Virus record (IMG/VR): IMGVR_UViG_2671180283_000029
Span: 1 to 23,822 of that record
Direction: 5' to 3' (one strand)
Source of the DNA: a virus
Taxonomy: Duplodnaviria; Heunggongvirae; Uroviricota; Caudoviricetes
DNA length: 23,822 nt
The notes beneath the pieces were generated by a model. That model ran no database searches. It had not been told where the DNA came from and was given only the letters and a program-made list of their open reading frames with translations. A program made the position numbers and the translations under genes. Below, in pieces: positions 2,816 through 17,590 of the stretch; the first letter of the stretch is position 1, and each line of letters starts with the position of its first letter.

Positions 2816-4966
2816 ATGGCACAGTTTAAAGTTGATGATTTTCTGATTGAGTTAAGTTTTAACTCTCAGAAAGTTTTAAAAGGCTTGGAAAAAGCCGAGA
2901 AACAAACGATGCAAATCGCATCAAGAATTGAGAAACGACTAAATAAGGCATTCAGAGTTAACCCTACGCCTTTAAATGATTCTCTCAAACTAATGGAAAA
3001 GAATGTCGATAAAACTGTTTCCAAGATTGAGCAGCGTCTTAAAAACACTAGAGCGTTTAAGATTAAAACGGAAATTGATGACACTTTAAAGCCACTTAGA
3101 CAACCAAGACAGCCACGAATTAGCGGCAACAGAGCAATCACAGCGGCTTACTCAGCTAATATGTCTAAGCTAAAAGGCTTTGACCCTATTTTGCAGAAAT
3201 ACATCAAATCTCAGTTTTACGGGCTATCTGCTAAAGCTGGGTCAATGGATTCTTCAAAATTCAATGAGAAGCTGACTCAGTTAAATGCTTCAGTCAGAGA
3301 AGCAATTGCTAAAGCTAAAGGTCATACATCCACCAGCATTAACAATACAAGCGACGCATTTAATAATCTTGCAAGCAATGCAATCAAGTTATCTGGTGCA
3401 TTTTACTCTGTGATGGGTGCTCTTAACGCTTACAAGGCCATCATGAATGCAGGTCTTAAACGAGATTCCGCACAGAGAGCCGCTAAGTTTGTACTTGGTG
3501 ATAAAGCATCTGAGGCTGAAACATTTATCAGGGGACTGGCTGACAAGACAGGTCTTAATATCTCTGAAGGGCTATCAAGCTACGCTAAGTTTGCAGCAGG
3601 TGCTCAGGGTTCTATGTCACAGGAACAGACACAGGAGCTATTTGGTAATGCAACGGCTATGAGTCGCTTAATGGGGCTTTCTAACGATGAGCTAAACGGC
3701 ATTTTGAAAGCATTTGAGCAGATGGCTTCTAAGGGCAAGATTCAGGCTGAAGAGCTTCGTGGGCAGTTAGGTGACCGTATGGCAGGGGCATTTAAGCTAT
3801 TCGCTGAAGCATTGGGTATGACTGCTACAGAGCTTGATAAAGCGATGAAAGACGGGAAGATTTTAAGTAGTGATACTCTCCCTAAAGTCGCTAAACAGAT
3901 GGGCTTGATGATTGATAAAGCGGGTGGCTGGGCTGAAGTCGCTAAGAGCACTCAGACAGCTTTAGGGAAACTGGCTAACAACTGGGATGATACGATGGTG
4001 AAAATCTTCTCAGGTTCACAGGATGAGTTAAACGGCTTCTTATCCAGCATGAGTAGCTTGCTTAGTGAAATGGGTATGAGTTCTTCTATCGCTGGTGATG
4101 CTATCGGTGGACTTATCGACATGCTTAAAGCTGGTGTAGATGACATCCGTATCTTTAACAATCACCTTGAAGGCTGGATTCTACAGATTAAGAAGACCTA
4201 TTACAGCCTTGATGACACTAAACGAAAACTACTTGATGAAGTCGGTGATGGTTTTATCAATTTTGTCAAAGGTCTTGCTATAGCGTTATCTGCAAAGACG
4301 CTATTCAGTGCTACTACAGGGGTTATGAACCTGACAAGAGCAATCACAACGTTAGGTACAAGAGCTAATCAGGTGGCTGGTCAGGTAGCTACTGGTAAAG
4401 GTGTAGCTGGTGGTGTAGGTAGTGCTCTTGCAATTGGTTATGCTGATGACGGTTATGAAACAGCGTTAGCATTAGCTTCAATGATTCCACAAATCAGAGG
4501 CGTCACTCTTGGTTTATATGCATTGAAGAAAGCACTGGATTTTATGAATCAGGAAGTAGTCAAAAACGCTAATATGCATCCATCTGGGGTAGGTGTGGGT
4601 AGTGACTTTAATCCTGTGTATTCTGGTGACCCTAATAAACCGAATATGATTAACGAAGGATGGGGTAGAATTTTTAGTTCAATGGGTGAATTGTTTAACA
4701 ATGCCACAATGAATATTGCAAGATTCAATCATCCAGAATTAATTACCATGAAACAAGATGCATCATTAACGAGCACTGACATCCAAAATCTAAGAGATGA
4801 AATTAGTGCTTTAAGTAAGCGTATTCAGGAGCCTGTGAAAGTTTCACTTGGTGGTGAAGTTGCCATTAAACCAGATGAAACCAGCTTTATGACCTTTAGC
4901 AGTAATATCTACGACCAATATGCAGAAGCTACGTTATTAAGTTCATCATTCCCAGAAGATGATTGA
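2816..4966 (+). CDS. phage tail tape-measure-like protein (716 aa)
   Basis: Motif GKIQAEELRGQLGDRMAGAFKLFAEALGMTATELDKAMKDGKILSSDTLPKVAKQMG resembles the conserved tape-measure domain; helical N-terminus and Gly/Ala-rich hydrophobic segments (about residues 480-560), typical of TMPs. Confidence 0.7.
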   Translation: MAQFKVDDFLIELSFNSQKVLKGLEKAEKQTMQIASRIEKRLNKAFRVNPTPLNDSLKLMEKNVDKTVSKIEQRLKNTRAFKIKTEIDDTLKPLRQPRQPRISGNRAITAAYSANMSKLKGFDPILQKYIKSQFYGLSAKAGSMDSSKFNEKLTQLNASVREAIAKAKGHTSTSINNTSDAFNNLASNAIKLSGAFYSVMGALNAYKAIMNAGLKRDSAQRAAKFVLGDKASEAETFIRGLADKTGLNISEGLSSYAKFAAGAQGSMSQEQTQELFGNATAMSRLMGLSNDELNGILKAFEQMASKGKIQAEELRGQLGDRMAGAFKLFAEALGMTATELDKAMKDGKILSSDTLPKVAKQMGLMIDKAGGWAEVAKSTQTALGKLANNWDDTMVKIFSGSQDELNGFLSSMSSLLSEMGMSSSIAGDAIGGLIDMLKAGVDDIRIFNNHLEGWILQIKKTYYSLDDTKRKLLDEVGDGFINFVKGLAIALSAKTLFSATTGVMNLTRAITTLGTRANQVAGQVATGKGVAGGVGSALAIGYADDGYETALALASMIPQIRGVTLGLYALKKALDFMNQEVVKNANMHPSGVGVGSDFNPVYSGDPNKPNMINEGWGRIFSSMGELFNNATMNIARFNHPELITMKQDASLTSTDIQNLRDEISALSKRIQEPVKVSLGGEVAIKPDETSFMTFSSNIYDQYAEATLLSSSFPEDD

Positions 4967-10359: not shown

Positions 10360-11187
10360 TTATTTAACCTGGATAAATGGTGTATTGGCACCGCTGGTCA
10401 TGTATTGCGGCAGCGTGCCATTCCATTTATTGATGGCTTCCAGCTCCATAACACCGGGGTTCTGACGCAGAGCTTCACCGCGTAAACGAATAGCATCGGC
10501 TTCAGCCTGGGCTTTTGTGCGAATCGCATCAGCCTGTCCGGCAGCTTCCGCGCGCAACATGTTGGCTTCCGCTTCGCGCTGTTTTACTTCCTGCTCGCGT
10601 TGCAGAGTTTTCTGGTTCGCCGTGACTTTGGCATTAATGCTGTCGATAACAGTAGGCGGGTACTCCGGCTTACCCACATATGAGAGGCTTATTACCTGAA
10701 TACCGATGGGCGTCATTTCTTCCTGAATGTCTTTAAGAGCTGCATCCAGCAGCTCAGACTTGCCGCCGTCGATAAATTTGTCGGTGGTCATTTTGCTGGC
10801 CAGTCGGTTGAGTGCGTCGGCTATCTTCTGGCGCAGGTCGGTGTCGGTAATGTCGTCCACGCCTTTGCGGTAGGTCTGAAAGACTGTGGTAACTTTGGAT
10901 GGATCAACCTTGTAGGCTACTCCGATGTGGTAACCAATGGTTGTTCCATCGCTCATCTGGAAACTGAATGGATCATCGTAGGTCTTCATCTGCTTAAAGG
11001 TCGGGAAGATATAAACTTCAGTGTTCCAGCCTGTCCAGTAGCGACCAACACCGACCACTTCACCGACGCCTTTGTCGTCGCCAAGTTTGTTGACTTTGAT
11101 GCCCACATTACCAGGCTCAACACGATCACAACCGACAAGGCCAATGGCAGGCAGAACAATGGCTAAAGAAAAAATAATTTTTTTCAT
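10360..11187 (-). CDS. SPFH/band-7 (prohibitin/stomatin-like) domain lipoprotein, 275 aa
   Basis: Signal peptide with lipobox LVGC (MKKIIFSLAIVLPAIGLVGC); band-7-like core; C-terminal Ala/Glu/Arg/Gln-rich coiled coil typical of SPFH oligomerisation tails; AAGGA SD; ATGA overlap with the upstream small gene. Confidence 0.75.
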   Translation of the reverse strand: MKKIIFSLAIVLPAIGLVGCDRVEPGNVGIKVNKLGDDKGVGEVVGVGRYWTGWNTEVYIFPTFKQMKTYDDPFSFQMSDGTTIGYHIGVAYKVDPSKVTTVFQTYRKGVDDITDTDLRQKIADALNRLASKMTTDKFIDGGKSELLDAALKDIQEEMTPIGIQVISLSYVGKPEYPPTVIDSINAKVTANQKTLQREQEVKQREAEANMLRAEAAGQADAIRTKAQAEADAIRLRGEALRQNPGVMELEAINKWNGTLPQYMTSGANTPFIQVK

Positions 11188-11372
11188 CTTTTATCCTTAG
11201 TGAAAGAAAGCCCCTTATAAATGGTATAAATGCATGGCGGGGTTAGAAACGTCAGTGCAAAGCCAGAAATCACCGCTACCGTATCCTTCATTGATATCAG
11301 AAACGGGACGAGCAATCCGTAAATACATGCGATAATTGCCAGTGATATAACTATTCTGAAATAAATATTCAT
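11184..11372 (-). CDS. small membrane protein (62 aa, two predicted TM helices) coupled to the SPFH lipoprotein
   Basis: Two hydrophobic stretches (IVISLAIIACIYGLLVPFLI and AVISGFALTFLTPPCIYTI); AGGAGG SD; its stop overlaps the lipoprotein ATG. Confidence 0.55.
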   Translation of the reverse strand: MNIYFRIVISLAIIACIYGLLVPFLISMKDTVAVISGFALTFLTPPCIYTIYKGLSFTKDKR

Positions 11373-11432
11373 GGTCCTCCTGCTGTATTCGGCTTGCCTT
11401 ATTTAATTGCGTCATGGTTAATTTCGTTTACG

Positions 11433-11825
11433 TCAGAATGGTTTTGTTGCCATCAGTTCGTAATATCCGGCGCTCCATGTGTCATATTTTCTGAACCATT
11501 TTTCTGTATACTGTTTCCTGGCGATGAGTCTGCGCAGTCGTCTGATTGTTCGCTGGTGTGCGCGGGTGTACTCTGTGGTTGATTCTCCACGTTTCCATAT
11601 CTCATTCCCGTTGAAGATAAAACGCTTGTCAGGATGGCGTTGTCGGAATCCTGAACGTTCAAAAGCGCGGGTGGTCATAAAGAATGCCAGGTAACGAATT
11701 GCCGTTTTTCGAGTGAGGCATTTTTTTGTTCTTCCGTGGCGTGTTACAAAAAATAACGGGCCGACGGGTGTATCATGTTTCTGTAATGCCTGGTCAATGG
11801 CGCTGGCGGTGCGGTTGTCGATCAT
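11433..11825 (-). CDS. hypothetical basic protein (130 aa)
   Basis: ORF in the coupled leftward operon; Arg/Lys-rich; start overlaps the upstream gene stop. Confidence 0.5.
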   Translation of the reverse strand: MIDNRTASAIDQALQKHDTPVGPLFFVTRHGRTKKCLTRKTAIRYLAFFMTTRAFERSGFRQRHPDKRFIFNGNEIWKRGESTTEYTRAHQRTIRRLRRLIARKQYTEKWFRKYDTWSAGYYELMATKPF

Positions 11826-12040
11826 TTCTTTATTTCTCCTGAATAACGTTCATGACTCATTACTTCCCAGTTCCGGCCGTCGTCTTTCGATAACAGCCGC
11901 CAGCGACGGTTAACCTTCAGACTGAGACATCCGTTGCGCTGTATCCGATGCGGGAATATACGTCGGCATCTGTACCGCCGCAGGACCAGCAACGCCTGCT
12001 GGTGGACCCACTCAGGAATTCGCGTTGCTGTTAATGTCAC
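11822..12040 (-). CDS. hypothetical protein (72 aa)
   Basis: GTG start at 12040 with AGGAGG SD 6 nt upstream; ATGA-type junction with the downstream gene. Confidence 0.4.
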   Translation of the reverse strand: MTLTATRIPEWVHQQALLVLRRYRCRRIFPHRIQRNGCLSLKVNRRWRLLSKDDGRNWEVMSHERYSGEIKK

Positions 12041-12227
12041 TGGTTTCCTCCTGAGCAGGTGCTGTTATCTGATACCCCGCTCTTTCTGCCAGCCATATGA
12101 ATGTATCCATGCTGGCAATCAGCTCTCCATCGCGGACTTTGCAGACATCTGTTACCTGGCCATTTTCAATTGTCATAACGATCTGCACTTTTTCGTGCAC
12201 AACAGATACAGGGGATAAATTAGCCAT
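12012..12227 (-). CDS. hypothetical protein (71 aa)
   Basis: ATG at 12227 with GGAGG SD; overlaps the stop of the upstream gene. Confidence 0.45.
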   Translation of the reverse strand: MANLSPVSVVHEKVQIVMTIENGQVTDVCKVRDGELIASMDTFIWLAERAGYQITAPAQEETSDINSNANS

Positions 12228-12586
12228 CAGTTAATTCCTCCGCTGATATATTTTTCTTTCGCGTAATCAATAACCTCTTGTAAAAGGTTGTCTATAATTA
12301 ACTTTCCGGTTTCAGCCTGGTATTCAGTATGTTGATTAATCCCGATGGCATTCTGGTATGCAGTTCGGAATTCTGTTTCACCCTCCACTCGACCCAATTC
12401 ACCACGGGTAATATCTTCAAAGCGCAACAGCAACTGGTTTATAAACTGTTCTGTTATTTCTATGGTCGTAATGTTCCCATTCAGAAGGTCAACAATAAGC
12501 AGTTCACCACCTGTTTTACGTTTTATTCGATGGAGTTCTGCAACAGCTATACGGCGACGATATGTATTAATGGATTCATGTGTCAT
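12227..12586 (-). CDS. hypothetical protein (119 aa)
   Basis: ORF in the coupled leftward operon. Confidence 0.5.
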   Translation of the reverse strand: MTHESINTYRRRIAVAELHRIKRKTGGELLIVDLLNGNITTIEITEQFINQLLLRFEDITRGELGRVEGETEFRTAYQNAIGINQHTEYQAETGKLIIDNLLQEVIDYAKEKYISGGIN

Positions 12587-12589
12587 TTG

Positions 12590-12703
12590 TTATTTCCCGT
12601 ATGCTTTACGCAGAAATAAGCAGGCAATATGCATGTAATTTTCACCGTATTGTGCAATAAGACAGGCGGTCTTGTGTGATGCCATATTCTTTATAAAAGT
12701 CAT
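12590..12703 (-). CDS. small hypothetical protein (37 aa, MTFIKNMASHKTACLIAQYGENYMHIACLFLRKAYGK)
   Basis: ATG at 12703 with perfect AGGAGG SD 7 nt upstream; ends 4 nt before the next gene's start; below the track cutoff. Confidence 0.3.
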   Translation of the reverse strand: MTFIKNMASHKTACLIAQYGENYMHIACLFLRKAYGK

Positions 12704-12781
12704 AATAAAGCCTCCTGTGGATTAAGATTGTAACAATCCCCGGCGATAAAACCGCAATAAACCTTCAGGGCATATTTGTTG

Positions 12782-13147
12782 TTATTGCGCTAATTCTTTT
12801 TCGGCAGCAGCTTTTGCATACTCACATGCAAAATTCAGAATTTCGCTGCCGAGTGTTTTCGTTTCGTGATTACTGGACATATGTAATACCTGTGTTGCAT
12901 GCAATAAATGATAAACATTTACCGCAAATGAATCAGGCTCCAGACAAATGCCTTCGTAATTATCTTGCTGTGAGGTTGTTTCTGTCATTGCTTCTGAAGT
13001 GCATGCGAGCCTGTTTTTGACAATTCTCTTTCCTCTAATCACTATATCGGCAACATCTATTGCCTTTACAACCTCCGGGAGAAGTTCCGGGTTTGTATAA
13101 TCAAAGTCATCAACATGGAGAACAGTTATGTTTTCGAACTTTTTCAT
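12782..13147 (-). CDS. hypothetical protein (121 aa); first gene of the leftward early operon (lambda N map position, not N-like)
   Basis: ORF preceded by a divergent intergenic region (13148-13326) containing inverted repeats; not arginine-rich like N. Confidence 0.5.
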   Translation of the reverse strand: MKKFENITVLHVDDFDYTNPELLPEVVKAIDVADIVIRGKRIVKNRLACTSEAMTETTSQQDNYEGICLEPDSFAVNVYHLLHATQVLHMSSNHETKTLGSEILNFACEYAKAAAEKELAQ

Positions 13148-13326
13148 GGCTTCCTCAGCTGACTTATATGTCCTGCTATATAGCGAGTCTCAGAAGTGTT
13201 TTCATATTGAGACTGTTTCCGCAATGATTGATAATCAGTTACCGGATGCTTATCCGTGTCCGGCGCACGACCACACGTAGCCGCGTGTTGGTCCCCATTT
13301 TCAATTCAGCTCTCAATGGAGGATAA

Positions 13327-13554
13327 ATGATTAACGCAGAGCAACTCGAAAAAGAGATTTCAGAACTCAAAAAAGAATTAATTTGGCACAAAGTTGCTAT
13401 CTCCGCATTAATTCGTCAGGTAGTTTCACCTGAAGATAAAGTAAAGTTTATGAAGCAGCTCTCATCTTCATCAAAGGAGTTTTTCACTGACGAGGTTCAT
13501 CCAGAGGCTGGATTTTGGATCCGTCAATTATTTTCGCAAGATAAGCGTAAATAG
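13327..13554 (+). CDS. hypothetical small coiled-coil protein (75 aa)
   Basis: ATG with GGAGG SD 5 nt upstream; converges on and overlaps the 3' end of the minus-strand 80-aa gene by 71 nt. Confidence 0.45.
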   Translation: MINAEQLEKEISELKKELIWHKVAISALIRQVVSPEDKVKFMKQLSSSSKEFFTDEVHPEAGFWIRQLFSQDKRK

Positions 13555-13726
13555 CGTCATCAATACTCGCGTCGCTCTTGAATTTAAGAGCGATGCTCTT
13601 TATATCCTCTGAAATTATTACCAGATCACCATATGTTATATTTTTATTATTGCGCGCAGTGCTTTTTTGTATGAAATCAAGCAATTCACCAATGAGACAA
13701 ATATGGTAAGCATTACAGTTTTTCAT
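13484..13726 (-). CDS. hypothetical protein (80 aa), gene B of the cI-adjacent module
   Basis: ATG at 13726 overlaps the TGA of the upstream HTH gene (ATGA junction); the track's longer version starts further upstream in the other gene. Confidence 0.5.
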   Translation of the reverse strand: MKNCNAYHICLIGELLDFIQKSTARNNKNITYGDLVIISEDIKSIALKFKSDASIDDAIYAYLAKIIDGSKIQPLDEPRQ

Positions 13727-14184
13727 GCGCAGATATCCTTTGCTGCCGTTTCGCCAGTTAACAGCCACATCGCATCGCAGCCAAGAATATTTGCCAGTGG
13801 GATAAGCATACTGATAGTTGGTTCATACTCTCCGCTCTCCCACTGGATGATAATTTCTTCATCGAGATCGAGCAGCCTGGCGAGTTCGGCGGTTGTTAAG
13901 CCGCAGGCTTCGCGTTGGGTGCGAAGGTTAACCAGCCAGCTTTCAGGGAAGGATTGTTTTTGTTGCGCAGGAGAAGCAGCAGATAGAGCATATTCATGGA
14001 TAAATTCCATTATCTCAATGCCCAGTTCCTTTGAGCGAGCACAATCCAGAAGATGGAATGTGCGTACAGCACTTAGCAAATTTGCAATATTTAATGCAAA
14101 GGAATCAAGTTCTAAGCCCTTAAGCGTAACACAGCCGCAGTTGATAAAATTAGTTGTTTCTGGAGTTGCTTTTAGTGTCTTCAT
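13723..14184 (-). CDS. XRE-family HTH protein with an unknown N-terminal domain (153 aa), gene A of the cI-adjacent module
   Basis: C-terminal LRTQREACGLTTAELARLLDLDEEIIIQWESGEYEPTISMLIPLANILGCDAMWLL is a classic XRE helix-turn-helix; ATG at 14184 with GGCGGA SD (track start at 14214 is TTG); N-terminal ~85 aa unrecognised. Confidence 0.6.
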   Translation of the reverse strand: MKTLKATPETTNFINCGCVTLKGLELDSFALNIANLLSAVRTFHLLDCARSKELGIEIMEFIHEYALSAASPAQQKQSFPESWLVNLRTQREACGLTTAELARLLDLDEEIIIQWESGEYEPTISMLIPLANILGCDAMWLLTGETAAKDICA

Positions 14185-14237
14185 ATATCCGCCAACAATT
14201 TTAAATTGAATCAAATCAAGTTATAATTGATGGTGCG

Positions 14238-14266
14238 ATATTATGTTTTGGGAAATAGCCTGTCAA
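14238..14266 (-). promoter_or_regulatory. near-consensus sigma70-type promoter for the gene A-B module
   Basis: On the minus strand TTGACA (rc of 14261-14266), 17-nt spacer, TAATAT (rc of 14238-14243); lies between the cI terminator and gene A. Confidence 0.45.
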
Positions 14267-14294
14267 GAAAAAATTGATATCGTATATTTCAGGC

Positions 14295-14318
14295 AGAAAA
14301 AAAACGGGCAAAGCCCGT
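14295..14318 (-). terminator. intrinsic terminator downstream of cI
   Basis: On the minus strand ACGGGC-TTT-GCCCGT stem-loop followed by T8. Confidence 0.55.
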
Positions 14319-14330
14319 TAAAATCAAAGA

Positions 14331-15026
14331 CTAACCAAATCTGTTTATGTTGAATGGTACTGATGAGATCACTTTAGACTGGATATAAAGCAGAGCTAAC
14401 CCCTCTTTTTCGATGCTCCATGGTTGATAATTGGGGTTATCAGATAACACCATGATTTTGCTTCCAATTTTTTGAAGCCTTTTCACGTAGCATTCTCCAT
14501 CAAAACAAAATGCATAAATACCATCGCCATCAAAATAAGTTACTGTCTTATCAAGAAAAAGAAGGTCGCCAGGTGAGATTGTGGGAGCCATACTGTCTCC
14601 TCTGGCGTTACCTATTTCTATATTTTTGAATGCCCGATTCCCAACAAGACGTCGGGCATATTCAGGATCAAGTTCTATTGAGCGCACTACATCTATCAAG
14701 TCACCACGGACATGAGTTCCATCACCGCAACTAAACTCAACATCAAGGACATTAAACACGACACTATCTGTTCTTGTCTGGTGTTTCTCTTGCGAGGAAA
14801 AGGTTGGTGAGGAGTCTTCACCTAAGAACCAGGATTGTGGATAACCGCTAATCTCTGATAAATGCGCGAGCTTATCACTCCGTGGAAATGTTTTTCCTGT
14901 TGTCCAGTACTGCACTGATTGCGCACTCACACCTAACTTGCGGGCCAGTTGAGCCTGAGTCCATCCTTTTGCTTTCAGCATCGCGGCTATTCGATTTTCC
15001 GTGTTTTTGACGTTCTTCATGACCAA
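14331..15026 (-). CDS. cI: CI-type prophage repressor (HTH_XRE plus S24 LexA-like peptidase), 231 aa
   Basis: N-terminal HTH (KGWTQAQLARKLGVSAQSVQYWTTGKTFP); C-terminal S24 signature with GDSM serine and VKRL lysine; divergent from the cro-like gene. Confidence 0.85.
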   Translation of the reverse strand: MVMKNVKNTENRIAAMLKAKGWTQAQLARKLGVSAQSVQYWTTGKTFPRSDKLAHLSEISGYPQSWFLGEDSSPTFSSQEKHQTRTDSVVFNVLDVEFSCGDGTHVRGDLIDVVRSIELDPEYARRLVGNRAFKNIEIGNARGDSMAPTISPGDLLFLDKTVTYFDGDGIYAFCFDGECYVKRLQKIGSKIMVLSDNPNYQPWSIEKEGLALLYIQSKVISSVPFNINRFG

Positions 15027-15153
15027 ATCCTGTGGGTTTCTTTACAAGGATAAATCTTTACTTGATTTTAGTGTATTCGATCCTTTTGCAACTTGCATGT
15101 TAATTTAAACTTGATGTATTCTTGATTTATAAAGTTAATATTGGTGCTTTGTT
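15027..15153. promoter_or_regulatory. cI/cro divergent promoter-operator region (pRM/pR equivalent)
   Basis: 127-bp AT-rich spacer between divergent cI and cro-like genes containing three copies of a CTTGAT-containing motif; exact operators not resolved. Confidence 0.45.
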
Positions 15154-15444
15154 ATGGAAGGAAATGATTACGACAAACTTCGTGCATTAATTGCGCAAAA
15201 TGCCATAGCGCGAAATCTTGGTGTGACGCCGCAAGCGGTGAATCAGTGGTTTTCAAAAAGCACAATTCCTGCTCGTTTCGTTTTACGAGTATGTGAAGTA
15301 GTTGCATGGAAGGTTACACCTCATGGCTTAAGGCCAGATCTTTATCCTCACCCTGAAGATGGAATTCCTAACTTGTTACGCAAAAGCCTAAATCCAAGTT
15401 CACCACACAGAGCGGATGGAATACACGCAGGAGATAAACAATGA
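15154..15444 (+). CDS. Cro-like (YdaS-type) HTH regulator, 96 aa
   Basis: Position divergent from cI; HTH-like segment ARNLGVTPQAVNQWFSKSTIP; stop overlaps the next ATG (ATGA). Confidence 0.55.
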   Translation: MEGNDYDKLRALIAQNAIARNLGVTPQAVNQWFSKSTIPARFVLRVCEVVAWKVTPHGLRPDLYPHPEDGIPNLLRKSLNPSSPHRADGIHAGDKQ

Positions 15445-16148
15445 ACACCGCAATTTTTAACGGCAAAGCATCCATGACCAGCGTTGAGATCGCAGAGCTG
15501 GTGGGAAGCCGACCAGATAGTGTTAAGAGAACTATTGAAACACTGGCTAAAAAGGGAATCATCCAATTTCCACAGACTGTGGAAATTGAGAATAAACAAT
15601 CACTTGGGCCTCGCCGATTTTCTAGCGCGTATGTATTCGAAGGTGAACGAGGTAAGCGCGACAGCATCATTGTCGTCGCACAGCTCTGTCCTGAATTCAC
15701 TGCTCGCCTGGTAGATCGCTGGCGCGAACTGGAAGAACAGATCCGTAAGCCAATGAGCGAAATCGAAATGGTTGCCGCGATGGCTCTTGAAGCAGTTCGT
15801 CAGCAGAAACGGATCACTCAGGTGGAAGAAAAAGTCAGCCACGTTGCTGAAACAGTCGAGCAAATTAAAAAGGGCACTATTCGTGAGGGCTATGCCGGAT
15901 ATCGCCAACTGAAAGCAAAAACCGGTTTGTCAGATGATAAATGCCGCAATCTGGTGAACGCCTATCAGATTCCTACAGACACCCATGAGTTCATGACGCC
16001 GGACGGATTGTTGTCACGTCGCGCAATTGTTGCTGTGGAACCGTTTATGGCTGCTTTTTATCGGGTTATGGAGGAAGCAGAACCGCGAGGGACTCGCTGG
16101 TATCACCCGAAAATGGGGTTATTTCAGGTTATTGGTTGGCAGCGGTGA
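15441..16148 (+). CDS. Rha-family phage regulatory protein (235 aa), in the cII map position
   Basis: N-terminal SVEIAELVGSRPDSVKRTIETL and later YVFEGERGKRDSIIVVAQLCPEFTARLVDRWRELE fit the pattern I recall for the Phage_pRha domain; translationally coupled to cro. Confidence 0.5.
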   Translation: MNTAIFNGKASMTSVEIAELVGSRPDSVKRTIETLAKKGIIQFPQTVEIENKQSLGPRRFSSAYVFEGERGKRDSIIVVAQLCPEFTARLVDRWRELEEQIRKPMSEIEMVAAMALEAVRQQKRITQVEEKVSHVAETVEQIKKGTIREGYAGYRQLKAKTGLSDDKCRNLVNAYQIPTDTHEFMTPDGLLSRRAIVAVEPFMAAFYRVMEEAEPRGTRWYHPKMGLFQVIGWQR

Positions 16149-16256: not shown

Positions 16257-16919
16257 ATGATCATTTCAAGACCAAATATTGATTCTGCAATTTCGGGACG
16301 TTACACTGTCTCCGCACCTTATAAAGCGGGTGCCGGGGGTCGCAGCCCGGAATTGTCAACGGCGATATATGACGCGCCAGCGTCTTTTTTATCGTCCGCG
16401 CTCACGCACGCCAGAATTATGGTGGGCTGGGCAGGGGAGCCGAAAGGCTCGCCGGTCTCCGTTGACGCCGGTACTGCGAACCCTGTTCAGTCTGCCACCA
16501 GTGAGTTTCGCAGCTCCGGTGGTGGAAGTTTTCCACAGTCAACGGAGGCTGCCATCATGGCTACTGTCCCAACTTCCCCATACCTGAAAATTGAAGTTGT
16601 CAACGGCAAGGCCGTTATTTTCTCCCTGCATGTTGCCTGCCACTTTAAGCGAATGCACCAGAACATCGTTGACAAAATCGAGTATCTGAACTGCTCACGC
16701 GAGTTTTTTACCCGCAATTTCATACCGGGTACTTATCACATCTACGGTGACTCCCTGCGTGGTTATTACATCACCCTTGATGGTCTGATGATGCTTCAGC
16801 TTGGGTTAAGTCTGCGCACAATGCGGTACTACGAGAGCTGTATTGAAGCATTCCATGAGGCTGAAACCGTCCAGGGTCACTCCGCGTTCCGTCGTAATCA
16901 ACGGGAGGTGCACCTATGA
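16257..16919 (+). CDS. Rha-domain protein with Gly/Ala/Pro/Ser-rich N-terminal extension, paralog 1 (220 aa)
   Basis: Segment KIEVVNGKAVIFSLHVACHFKRMHQNIVDKIE ... YYITLDGLMMLQLGLSLRTMRYYESCIEAFHEAE matches the Rha-domain pattern; ~90-aa low-complexity N-terminus; no SD before the 16257 ATG, so the start is uncertain. Confidence 0.55.
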   Translation: MIISRPNIDSAISGRYTVSAPYKAGAGGRSPELSTAIYDAPASFLSSALTHARIMVGWAGEPKGSPVSVDAGTANPVQSATSEFRSSGGGSFPQSTEAAIMATVPTSPYLKIEVVNGKAVIFSLHVACHFKRMHQNIVDKIEYLNCSREFFTRNFIPGTYHIYGDSLRGYYITLDGLMMLQLGLSLRTMRYYESCIEAFHEAETVQGHSAFRRNQREVHL

Positions 16920-17590
16920 TCCGCCACCAGCTTATTGATTCTGCAATTTCGGGACGGTACACTGTCCAAGCACCTTATAAAGCGGGTGCCGGGATTGGCG
17001 TCCTGGAAATGTTATCGGCGATATATGACGCGCCAGCGTCTTTTTTATCGTCTGCGTCTGCGCACACCCAAATTATGGTGGGCTGGACGGGGGCACCGAA
17101 AGGTGCGCCGGTTTCCGATAACGCCGGTTACGCCAACCCCGTTCAGTTCACCACCAGCGAAATTGGCGTTTCCGGTGGTGAAGGTAATTCACTGTTATCG
17201 GAGGCTGCCATCATGGCTACAGTCCCAACTTCCCCATACCTCAAAATCGAAGTCGTCAACGGCAAGGCCGTTATTTTCTCTTTGCATGTTGCCTGTCATT
17301 TCAAGCGCATGCACCAGAACATCGTCGACAAAATCGAGTATCTGAACTGCTCGCGTGAATTCTTCTCCCGTAATTTCATTCCGGGTACTTACCACGTGTA
17401 TGGCGATTCCTTGCGTGGTTATTACATCACTCTTGATGGCCTGATGATGCTTCAGCTTGGGTTAAGTCTGCGCACAATGCGGTACTACGAGAGCTGCATT
17501 GAGGCATTCCATGAAGCTGAAACCAGCCTGAATCATACAGCTTTCCGCTGTAATCAATGGGAGGTGCGCCCATGATTCGCCGCCTCGTTA
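16277..17590. repeat. tandem direct duplication (~660 bp x 2) spanning the two Rha-like paralogs
   Basis: Copy 1 (from ~16277) and copy 2 (from ~16933) align colinearly with high identity, including the downstream SD-ATGA junction (GGGAGGTGCACCTATGA vs GGGAGGTGCGCCCATGA). Confidence 0.8.
16916..17575 (+). CDS. Rha-domain protein with low-complexity N-terminal extension, paralog 2 (219 aa)
   Basis: Same architecture as paralog 1; GGGAGG SD; ATGA overlap with paralog 1. Confidence 0.55.
   Translation: MIRHQLIDSAISGRYTVQAPYKAGAGIGVLEMLSAIYDAPASFLSSASAHTQIMVGWTGAPKGAPVSDNAGYANPVQFTTSEIGVSGGEGNSLLSEAAIMATVPTSPYLKIEVVNGKAVIFSLHVACHFKRMHQNIVDKIEYLNCSREFFSRNFIPGTYHVYGDSLRGYYITLDGLMMLQLGLSLRTMRYYESCIEAFHEAETSLNHTAFRCNQWEVRP

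Follow-up and report, generated by a model that had tools for sequence, protein, structure and literature searches.

A phiP27-like prophage appears to carry, next to cI, the start of its early-left operon and an inserted head-on gene pair with a structured leader

The 23,822-nucleotide (nt) stretch of DNA analysed here (the whole of IMG/VR virus record IMGVR_UViG_2671180283_000029, referred to below as the window) is a phiP27-like lambdoid prophage of Escherichia coli, and the subject of this report is the block of three small genes, A, B, and C, that lies next to its cI-type repressor gene (positions 13148-14330). The reading that we favour, and consider probable, is that this block is the start of the repressor-controlled early-left operon, in which the leftward promoter and operator (pL/OL) are followed by A as the first gene, with an inserted 516-nt cassette that carries B and, behind a structured leader, C. 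An earlier sequence-only reading of the same DNA had placed the block between the first leftward early gene and cI, in the position of the lambda rexA and rexB genes, and had interpreted A, B, and C as a lysogen-expressed exclusion or toxin-antitoxin (TA)-like system. The features on which it was based are all present where it located them, one of them (an inverted repeat) at chance level; the map position is wrong, and the interpretation for the most part does not hold. Three features that it had missed are the hairpin after C, the promoter-like site before it, and the leader (Table 1). With the rex-like exclusion or TA system not upheld, the most interesting element of the block is the leader, which is widespread and unannotated. 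The present work establishes the anatomy of the block, the presence of the cassette in some relatives and its absence from others, the status of A, B, and C as coding genes, and the conservation and covariation of the leader.

The promoter that precedes A is the key to the position of the block. It had been described as an independent promoter active in the lysogen; the promoter is indeed there, but its independence is contradicted by the fact that it bears the operator motif of the repressor and is swapped together with the immunity type. One of the two exact copies of the motif TCAAG-N6-TTGA at this place overlaps the -35 hexamer, while the other lies just downstream of the -10, and four more copies, with one or two mismatches each, are found in the cI-cro intergenic region (15051-15144). 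When a weight matrix was built from three cI-cro sites only, both exact OL sites ranked second and third of ~47,600 other positions in the window. In the phiP27 immunity type the same promoter bears GTATCAA half-sites of its own type, and in another immunity type it bears its own motif ATCGG-N4/5-CCGAT; in all, an own-type motif at the promoter is visible by eye in two immunity types beyond that of phiP27. Relatives with the same repressor align with the window through cI, the terminator, and the promoter, whereas those with a different repressor align only from 13926 leftwards. As the promoter is exchanged along with cI, it belongs to the immunity module, which is what would be expected of OL/pL. 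Given the operator motif common to the promoter and the cI-cro region, and the co-variation with immunity type, the simplest reading is that the promoter beside A is pL/OL, predicted to be silent in the lysogen through repression by cI. The promoter scan as a whole stands at chance (nine sites versus 7.3 expected), and it is through its context, not through its score, that this promoter is credible.

Upstream of this promoter, the terminator scan recovers the hairpin and T8 run that had been reported between the block and cI. On the minus strand, seven pairs (five G-C) close a loop of 3 nt and a TTTTTTTT tail follows, and a hairpin followed by a T-run can be read by eye at the equivalent position of other immunity types. 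The claim that the block lies between the first leftward early gene and cI fails because A itself is the first leftward early gene: A holds the position of N, not that of rex. In this way the map of a common prophage family, phiP27-like and associated with Shiga toxin (Stx), is now fixed, the gene that follows cI being an early regulator under pL.

The presence of an inserted cassette in this operon is documented by PhiR49_2, which is 99% identical to the window in cI, the promoter, and A, and again from 13234 leftwards, and in which 156 unrelated nt replace positions 13235-13750. The left edge of the cassette coincides with the start of the widely shared leader described below, and the cassette is also missing from loci with A genes that encode two helix-turn-helix (HTH) domains. 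Genes B and C were present together in 30 of the 30 fetched loci that have them, always right after a gene of the A family and, where the contig allows, before an L08-like gene; the HTH of A occurs without B or C in 33 other fetched loci. In seven cassette-free loci that were inspected, the gene immediately after A is L08-like, frequently joined to it through the same kind of ATGA junction, or else A precedes other small open reading frames (ORFs). The sequence-only reading had named the failure of B to stay with A in relatives as a result that would count against its proposal, and this is what the survey returned: A is mostly found without B, and PhiR49_2 has neither B nor C. From the 33 loci and PhiR49_2 it follows that A and B are not a co-conserved pair. 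What survives of the idea of an accessory, lysogen-expressed system is that B and C form an accessory unit on one indel cassette, and that the C unit could be expressed in the lysogen; the part that joined A to B does not.

RefSeq calls C, but not B. To find relatives of B, HMMER was run against 1.84 billion representative proteins, and it retrieved one real distant homologue (P0133), one 29-amino-acid (aa) fragment, and one spurious repeat protein. On the contig of P0133 (L142), the gene order is cro, repressor, A-like HTH gene, B-like gene, convergent C-like gene behind the same leader, and L08-like gene. Identities to the window are 40% for the B-like product, whose gene has its own GGAGG, 61% for the C-like product (ratio of nonsynonymous to synonymous divergence, dN/dS, of 0.12), and 33% for the L08-like product. 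Since both ORFs remain open in this contig at synonymous saturation, B and C are real genes, and they represent a two-gene head-on cassette that has stayed together through deep divergence. Nine close relatives provided the corresponding ratios of polymorphism (pN/pS). These are 0.36-0.43 for C in its own frame versus >1 in the other frames, and 0.23 for B outside the overlap with C; within the overlap, the value is 0.22 in the frame of C versus 1.30 in that of B. Of the two, C is the more constrained gene and B the faster-evolving one. The ATGA junction between the stop of A and the start of B (13726-13723) is confirmed, as are the GGAGG Shine-Dalgarno (SD) sequence of C and its 71-nt overlap with B (13484-13554). 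The proposal that this head-on overlap would permit antisense or transcriptional interference is likewise sound.

The proteins encoded by the cassette offer few functional clues. The statement that A, B, and C belong to no family that can be named is contradicted by full-length matches of the three proteins to phrog_4836, phrog_23054, and phrog_20080, respectively, and holds for B and C in Pfam, NCBIfam, and PADLOC, where neither has a match. To our knowledge, none of these three PHROG families has been studied experimentally. A sequence search of the PDB gave no match for B and one at chance level for C (E=0.92), and a scan of genome contigs with peptide patterns found no relatives of C across species. 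AlphaFold2 predicts that B is an all-helical three-helix bundle, with a moderate mean confidence (predicted local distance difference test, pLDDT, of 68); the model would be unlike RelE, ParE, and HigB, and a fold search in the PDB (Foldseek) and BFVD returned nothing significant. Neither profile searches nor structure prediction, which had been suggested as checks, thus provide B with a toxin or defence identity, as no family or fold is matched and the protein is predicted to be all-helical. The sequence of C suggests a heptad helix at the N-terminus and, after it, a conserved HPEAGFWIRQLF tail. Neither the sequence of B nor that of C contains a hydrophobic stretch long enough to span the membrane, as would be expected of a type I toxin.

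C has the appearance of a self-contained, moron-like transcription unit, in that its SD is strong and that consensus matches to a promoter and to a terminator hairpin flank it. The hexamers of the promoter-like site sit just outside the indel. The hairpin lies inside B, and substitutions in relatives preserve its pairing on the plus strand, as illustrated by the change from G.U to A-U at 13571/13594. An inverted repeat in the same intergenic region, AGTCTCA-N15-TGAGACT (13186-13214), had also been pointed out. It is present, and is judged to be due to chance because it is one of six perfect 7-mer inverted repeats in 1.3 kb and is broken by a T>C change at 13190 in four of the nine relatives.

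The leader of C is shared far beyond this cassette. The 93 nt upstream of the C start codon have matches in roughly a thousand E. coli genomes, at ~87% identity, and the ORF found behind them varies. Among complete E. coli genomes, roughly a fifth contain a match to the leader, including O157:H7 strains and the Stx2a phage of the O104:H4 outbreak; in the O157:H7 and O104:H4 prophages it is located between dicB/DicF and ydfA-like genes, before different ORFs of 64-69 aa that lie opposite dicB. In viral contigs, an invariant 16-mer of the leader was found in >120 loci, with at least 14 unrelated small ORFs behind the leader. Ten of these cargo ORFs were tested, and they belong to different PHROG families, with a function-less annotation, or to none; no Pfam match above threshold was obtained for any of the ten. 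A -10-like hexamer (such as TAAACT or TATAAT, at consensus level) precedes the leader start by 6-8 nt in most of the contexts read (Qin type, L142, and L006), and of 87 leader contexts, 71 have their next downstream ORF in the opposite orientation.

When 33 distinct leaders were folded singly, the same three elements appeared in all of them: an invariant hairpin (GCCGGAUG.../...CGUGUCCGGC), a second hairpin that varies with the type, and a third helix in which CUCC pairs with the GGAG of the ribosome-binding site, the SD being mostly paired in 33 of 33. Helix 2 exhibits the compensatory series C-G, U.G, U-A (contigs L004, L124, and L126), and its one-sided changes yield G.U on the plus strand only. 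A covariance model was built from 14 leaders, RNAalifold on a plain MAFFT alignment having misaligned helix 2, and it recovers 60 copies in 100 sources, including those of the window and of L142. In the model-fitted alignment, 93.1% of the cells assigned to pairs are indeed paired, versus 82.9% in shuffles (none of 500 reaches the observed value) and 20-51% with slid partners. Both sides change in nine pairs, of which five belong to helix 2 and four to helix 3. The compensatory changes in helices 2 and 3, along with the G.U pairs confined to the plus strand, indicate that the leader functions as RNA. Rfam contains no match for it at E<=1 in positions 11000-16000, nor at gathering score in the whole window (only C4 and isrK, elsewhere), and among the matches listed for the GC-rich 16-mer in a search of one genome per species there were only chance matches in high-GC genomes. 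Should the leader prove to be a genuine regulatory switch, its sequence would serve as a simple handle for finding prophage accessory genes that are missed by ordinary annotation.

Table 1. Features of the cI-adjacent block and its flanks (positions in the window).
Feature	Position	Strand	Basis and remarks
L08-like gene, 121 aa	12782-13147	-	phrog_5451 match; usual downstream neighbour of A
Promoter-like site for C, TTGAGA-17-GATAAT	13207-13235	+	Promoter scan, 10/12; ends 6 nt before leader
Accessory cassette, 516 nt	13235-13750		Carries leader, C, C terminator, B, and last 9 codons of A
5' leader of C, ~90 nt	13241-13329	+	Covariance model, 101.6 bits
Leader helices	H1 13242-13249/13256-13263; H2 13269-13278/13283-13293; H3 anti-SD ~13293-13299 with SD 13316-13323	+	
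Gene C, 75 aa, opposite strand to pL, convergent with B	13327-13554	+	RefSeq call; phrog_20080; GGAGG 5 nt before ATG
Gene B, 80 aa, read from predicted pL	13484-13726	-	Intact ORF in all 30 loci with C; phrog_23054
Terminator-like hairpin, 15 nt after C stop, inside B	13569-13596	+	12-pair stem, 4-nt loop, TCTTTATATC tail
Gene A, predicted first pL gene, XRE-family regulator, 153 aa	13723-14184	-	Pfam HTH_3 at residues 87-141, E=1e-10
Mosaic junction within A, residue 86/87	13926		Different-repressor relatives align only leftwards of here
Three operator-like 15-mers (OL)	14195-14277		TCAAG-N6-TTGA exact at 14263-14277 and 14216-14230; 2 mismatches at 14195-14209
Promoter TTGACA-17-TAATAT, read as pL	14238-14266	-	Promoter scan, 10/12 consensus matches
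Intrinsic terminator of cI transcript	14295-14319	-	Stem 14303-14319, T8 14295-14302; terminator scan
cI-type repressor gene	14331-15026	-	HTH_3 and Peptidase_S24; phrog_4 match; RefSeq: LexA-family regulator, 229 aa

Several further copies of the leader deserve to be recorded. In the Qin prophage of K-12 (L021, 3560-3720, minus strand), an unannotated, ORF-less remnant lies between ydfC and dicF, and no description of a transcript from the opposite strand of this spacer was found in the literature. Phage P13374, the Stx2a phage of the O104:H4 outbreak, has an unannotated, ORF-less copy or remnant between two early-left genes (L281, 3001-3048). In many Qin-like copies, the SD and the ORF are replaced by a further hairpin (ACCAAC...GUUGGU), and these might give rise to a small non-coding RNA. 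L006 (2266-2598, plus strand), and L085 at a similar position, contain a second copy of the leader, here followed by a different ORF, of 81 aa; this copy lies between cro and the Rha gene, across the immunity region and again opposite an early operon, in this case that of the rightward promoter (pR). In the O157:H7 contig L004 (~3720-3835, plus strand), another frame, within and just past the 69-aa leader-linked ORF, reads MALLILIVLLVAAALLVFPYNYQ..., which by eye would be a short peptide of strongly hydrophobic character. The second C4 RNA copy of the window contains GUGCGCCGG (17103-17111), complementary to the invariant leader segment CCGGCGCAC (13260-13268), and the first C4 copy does not; pairing of the leader with the C4 and isrK RNAs of the window is not significant, this single 9-nt complementarity being at chance level.

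Gene A encodes a regulator of the XRE family. Its coordinates and its C-terminal HTH, as given in the sequence-only reading, are correct, and the protein shows both HTH_3 above the Pfam threshold and a five-helix XRE fold, in agreement with the XRE/Cro-CI family (PF01381). Residues 1-24 are disordered, residues 26-69 form a helical hairpin, and residues 82-143 correspond to the HTH. The match to phrog_4836 extends over residues 1-152 (E=1.9e-76); the name of this family, 'CII-like regulator', is an annotation only, as are the labels 'transcriptional regulator', 'putative CII repressor', and 'DicA' that its members receive in phage records. No experimental study of the family was found in the literature, and PADLOC, Pfam, and NCBIfam yield generic HTH-level matches only. 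The homologues listed with an organism name are all from E. coli, except for two from Salmonella and one from Shigella. Most homologues have 216-230 aa and two XRE HTH domains, and in the 153-aa protein of the window the start resembles the first repeat and the end the second, the pattern that recombination between the two would leave. Separately, within the family (window 13723-13926; homologues P0001-P0120) repeated switching between one and two HTH domains is observed on several N-terminal backgrounds, which fits recombination between two near-identical HTH-coding repeats. The possibility that A and B are the halves of a split two-HTH gene was rejected, B being unlike the second HTH, and so was a relationship of A to PsrA/PsrB of O157, which are AraC-family proteins.

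The HTH hardly varies across the A family; of the N-terminal 85 residues, by contrast, at least five very different versions exist. The break in the alignments at 13926 implies that the hairpin of A travels with cI/OL/pL, and that the near-invariant HTH belongs to the common flank. This N-terminal hairpin is probably a dimerisation or partner-binding module that varies with the immunity type. A would be an early regulator whose binding site is the same in all immunity types. A homologous module is found in the L08-like protein: residues 24-65 of A and residues 69-110 of L08, at its C-terminus, are 45% identical over 42 residues (BLASTP, E=2e-9), and both proteins also have phrog_4587/5451 matches in common. 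The L08-like protein may modulate A through this common hairpin.

These elements can be assembled into a tentative scheme. In the lysogen, cI would shut pL, leaving A and B off, and C would be transcribed from its own promoter; its leader would stabilise the transcript and throttle its translation, and transcription would terminate at the hairpin inside B. Upon induction or infection, pL would fire and A and B would be made, B being translationally coupled to A. With pL active, head-on transcription and the 71-nt RNA overlap between B and C might turn C down. According to this scheme, C would act as an accessory protein of the lysogenic phase, and B, made in the early phase, would be linked to C, possibly as its antagonist. 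A bolder extension, which we regard as doubtful, is that the leader is an undescribed cis-regulatory RNA marking a hot spot, widespread among the lambdoid prophages of E. coli, for unrelated small proteins (at least 14 families) encoded antisense in early operons and made only in the lysogen or only once a specific trigger has opened the SD-masking helix; C would be an effector, acting for instance against superinfecting phage, and the fast-evolving, pL-driven B would be the cognate antidote that frees the phage's own lytic growth.

Several points weigh against the early-left reading and its structured leader, and temper the confidence placed in them. The promoter, operator, and terminator calls are all consensus or motif arguments, and a k-mer test for own-type operators was clear in two immunity types and ambiguous in two others. 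The co-occurrence of B and C is partly trivial, given that the two genes overlap physically. With regard to the leader, covariation was measured on an alignment fitted to the model, and such a fit favours the structure; helix 1 is invariant, so that covariation cannot speak to it; and at 13294 the leader of the window has C in place of the T (U) of its relatives, which weakens the anti-SD pairing.

The interpretation from which this work started, that A, B, and C are a single independently promoted exclusion or TA-like system of the lysogen, with A as an HTH antitoxin or regulator and B as a toxin, draws on the proximity of the block to cI with a terminator in between, on the ATGA junction of A and B, on the existence of HTH antitoxins with extra domains, and on the occurrence of defence genes in prophage immunity regions (remAIN, as cited in PMC12724215). 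It is now very improbable. The promoter carries the operator motif of the repressor and is replaced with the immunity type, three other types showing a motif of their own; PhiR49_2 shares cI, promoter, and A with the window and lacks both B and C, in line with the many loci in which A lacks B; and B, all-helical by prediction, has no match to a toxin family or in PADLOC. The resemblance of A to antitoxins amounts to weak, sub-threshold matches to the MqsA and HipB models, which are confined to the generic HTH and far under the curated cut-offs.

An explanation that keeps B and C together, and that we consider improbable, is that B is a harmful early protein silenced in the lysogen by C, either through the 3' overlap of its transcript or through its protein, in the manner of type I/III TA systems or of OOP/cII. 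The convergent overlap, of 71-89 nt, has been kept in a relative that is 40-60% diverged, B and C always occur together, and C has its own promoter-like site and a terminator located inside B, all of which would suit such a pair. However, B lacks both a type I-like hydrophobic segment and toxin homology, silencing at a second level is not needed, given that pL is predicted to be off in the lysogen anyway, and the dN/dS of C reflects a strong constraint at the protein level, so that the protein matters and not the RNA alone. The converse view denies any functional link: C would be an ordinary moron and B an ordinary early gene that overlap by accident, and the leader would be mainly a recombination linker at an exchange hot spot. 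Other cargo ORFs do stand behind the same leader without a B-like partner, the edges of the cassette are sequences common to otherwise different prophages, and the invariance of helix 1 would fit a role at the DNA level. Nevertheless, helices 2 and 3 are maintained by compensatory changes, the one-sided changes of helix 2 produce G.U pairs on the plus strand only, and the B-C arrangement has survived deep divergence, which makes this view unlikely as well. The early-left operon with an inserted cassette is the reading retained here.

Outside the block, 1.3 kb to its left, a 72-aa ORF (11822-12040, minus strand) matches the ParE-like toxin domain of Pfam (PF24732, 62 bits versus a cut-off of 24), and a 71-aa ORF (12012-12227, minus strand, phrog_340) overlaps it just upstream; this pair (11822-12227) is a better TA candidate than the A/B/C block. 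Further along in the same direction, positions 10360-11187 (minus strand) hold an SPFH/Band-7 lipoprotein-like gene that corresponds to phiP27 L05, an unusual cargo for an early-left operon. On the other side of cI, an Ash-family gene is duplicated in tandem (16257-17575, plus strand), and each copy contains an isrK-like small RNA (16314-16390 and 16970-17046) and a C4-type antisense RNA (16415-16502 and 17071-17158), all above the Rfam gathering scores. The C4/isrK copies point to a P1/P7-style antisense layer on top of cI/cro.

Defence and TA systems have been described in the immunity regions of other prophages, and they provide precedents for the idea from which this analysis departed, but they are not relatives of A, B, or C. 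This is the case of remAIN and GiPD474 (PMC12724215, PMC9879122); a relationship of the block to Gifsy-1 remAIN or to the STM14_3218-3220 system was considered and rejected, since gene sizes and domains differ. The third precedent, paaR2-paaA2-parE2, is a TA system within the immunity region of a cryptic O157:H7 prophage (PMC8630535). The window resembles it in having a ParE-like ORF nearby; however, this ORF is outside the block, and neither ParE nor PaaA2 is similar to A, B, or C.

A comparison with lambda is more informative. The rexA and rexB genes of lambda lie between cI and pL and are co-transcribed with cI. Both cases have accessory genes beside cI; in the window, these genes are preceded by a terminator and then by pL. 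Neither co-transcription with cI nor a lysogen-active promoter, which would characterise a RexAB-type arrangement, is predicted here, as cI is followed by the terminator and then by the operator-bearing promoter, and searches of Pfam, NCBIfam, PADLOC, and the PDB gave no similarity of A, B, or C to RexA or RexB, only the generic HTH of A being matched. The likeness is instead to the cI terminator/OL/pL region of lambda, where, as here, the promoter comes right after the repressor gene and is surrounded by repeats of the cI-cro type. As in the early-left region of lambda, the unit swaps with the immunity type and is followed by a long leftward operon that ends at xis and int. The difference resides in the first gene, which here encodes an XRE-family DNA-binding protein and not an N-type antiterminator; no nut-like element was seen either, although no search was aimed at one.

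The way in which A may be regulated recalls, by analogy only, SinR and SinI, a DNA-binding XRE protein and a small protein that has its oligomerisation helices in common. In both cases an HTH protein is paired with a small protein that possesses its helical module, the L08-like protein in the window. In contrast to SinR, the hairpin of A is N-terminal and not C-terminal, and the heterodimerisation of A and L08 is only inferred. As for the leader, the pairing of an upstream CUCC with the GGAG of the ribosome-binding site is similar, in principle only, to the leaders of type I toxin mRNAs (hok, tisB) and to the lambda cIII mRNA switch; the leader has no sequence or Rfam relation to them, and its cargo does not consist of small hydrophobic toxins.

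Regarding the cassette, lambda OOP/cII and P22 sar/ant are also convergent units with overlapping 3' ends next to immunity genes, but B and C are both protein-coding and both under selection at the protein level. C itself fits the concept of the morons of lambdoid phages such as HK97 and HK022 (PMC3594210). Like a moron, C sits between two genes that relatives have side by side, and it is found in some close relatives and not in others; candidate promoter and terminator sites, at consensus level, flank it. It departs from them in that its leader is common to at least 14 other unrelated small ORFs, in its antisense location inside an early operon, and in being accompanied by a convergent partner gene, B, which is read from the predicted pL.

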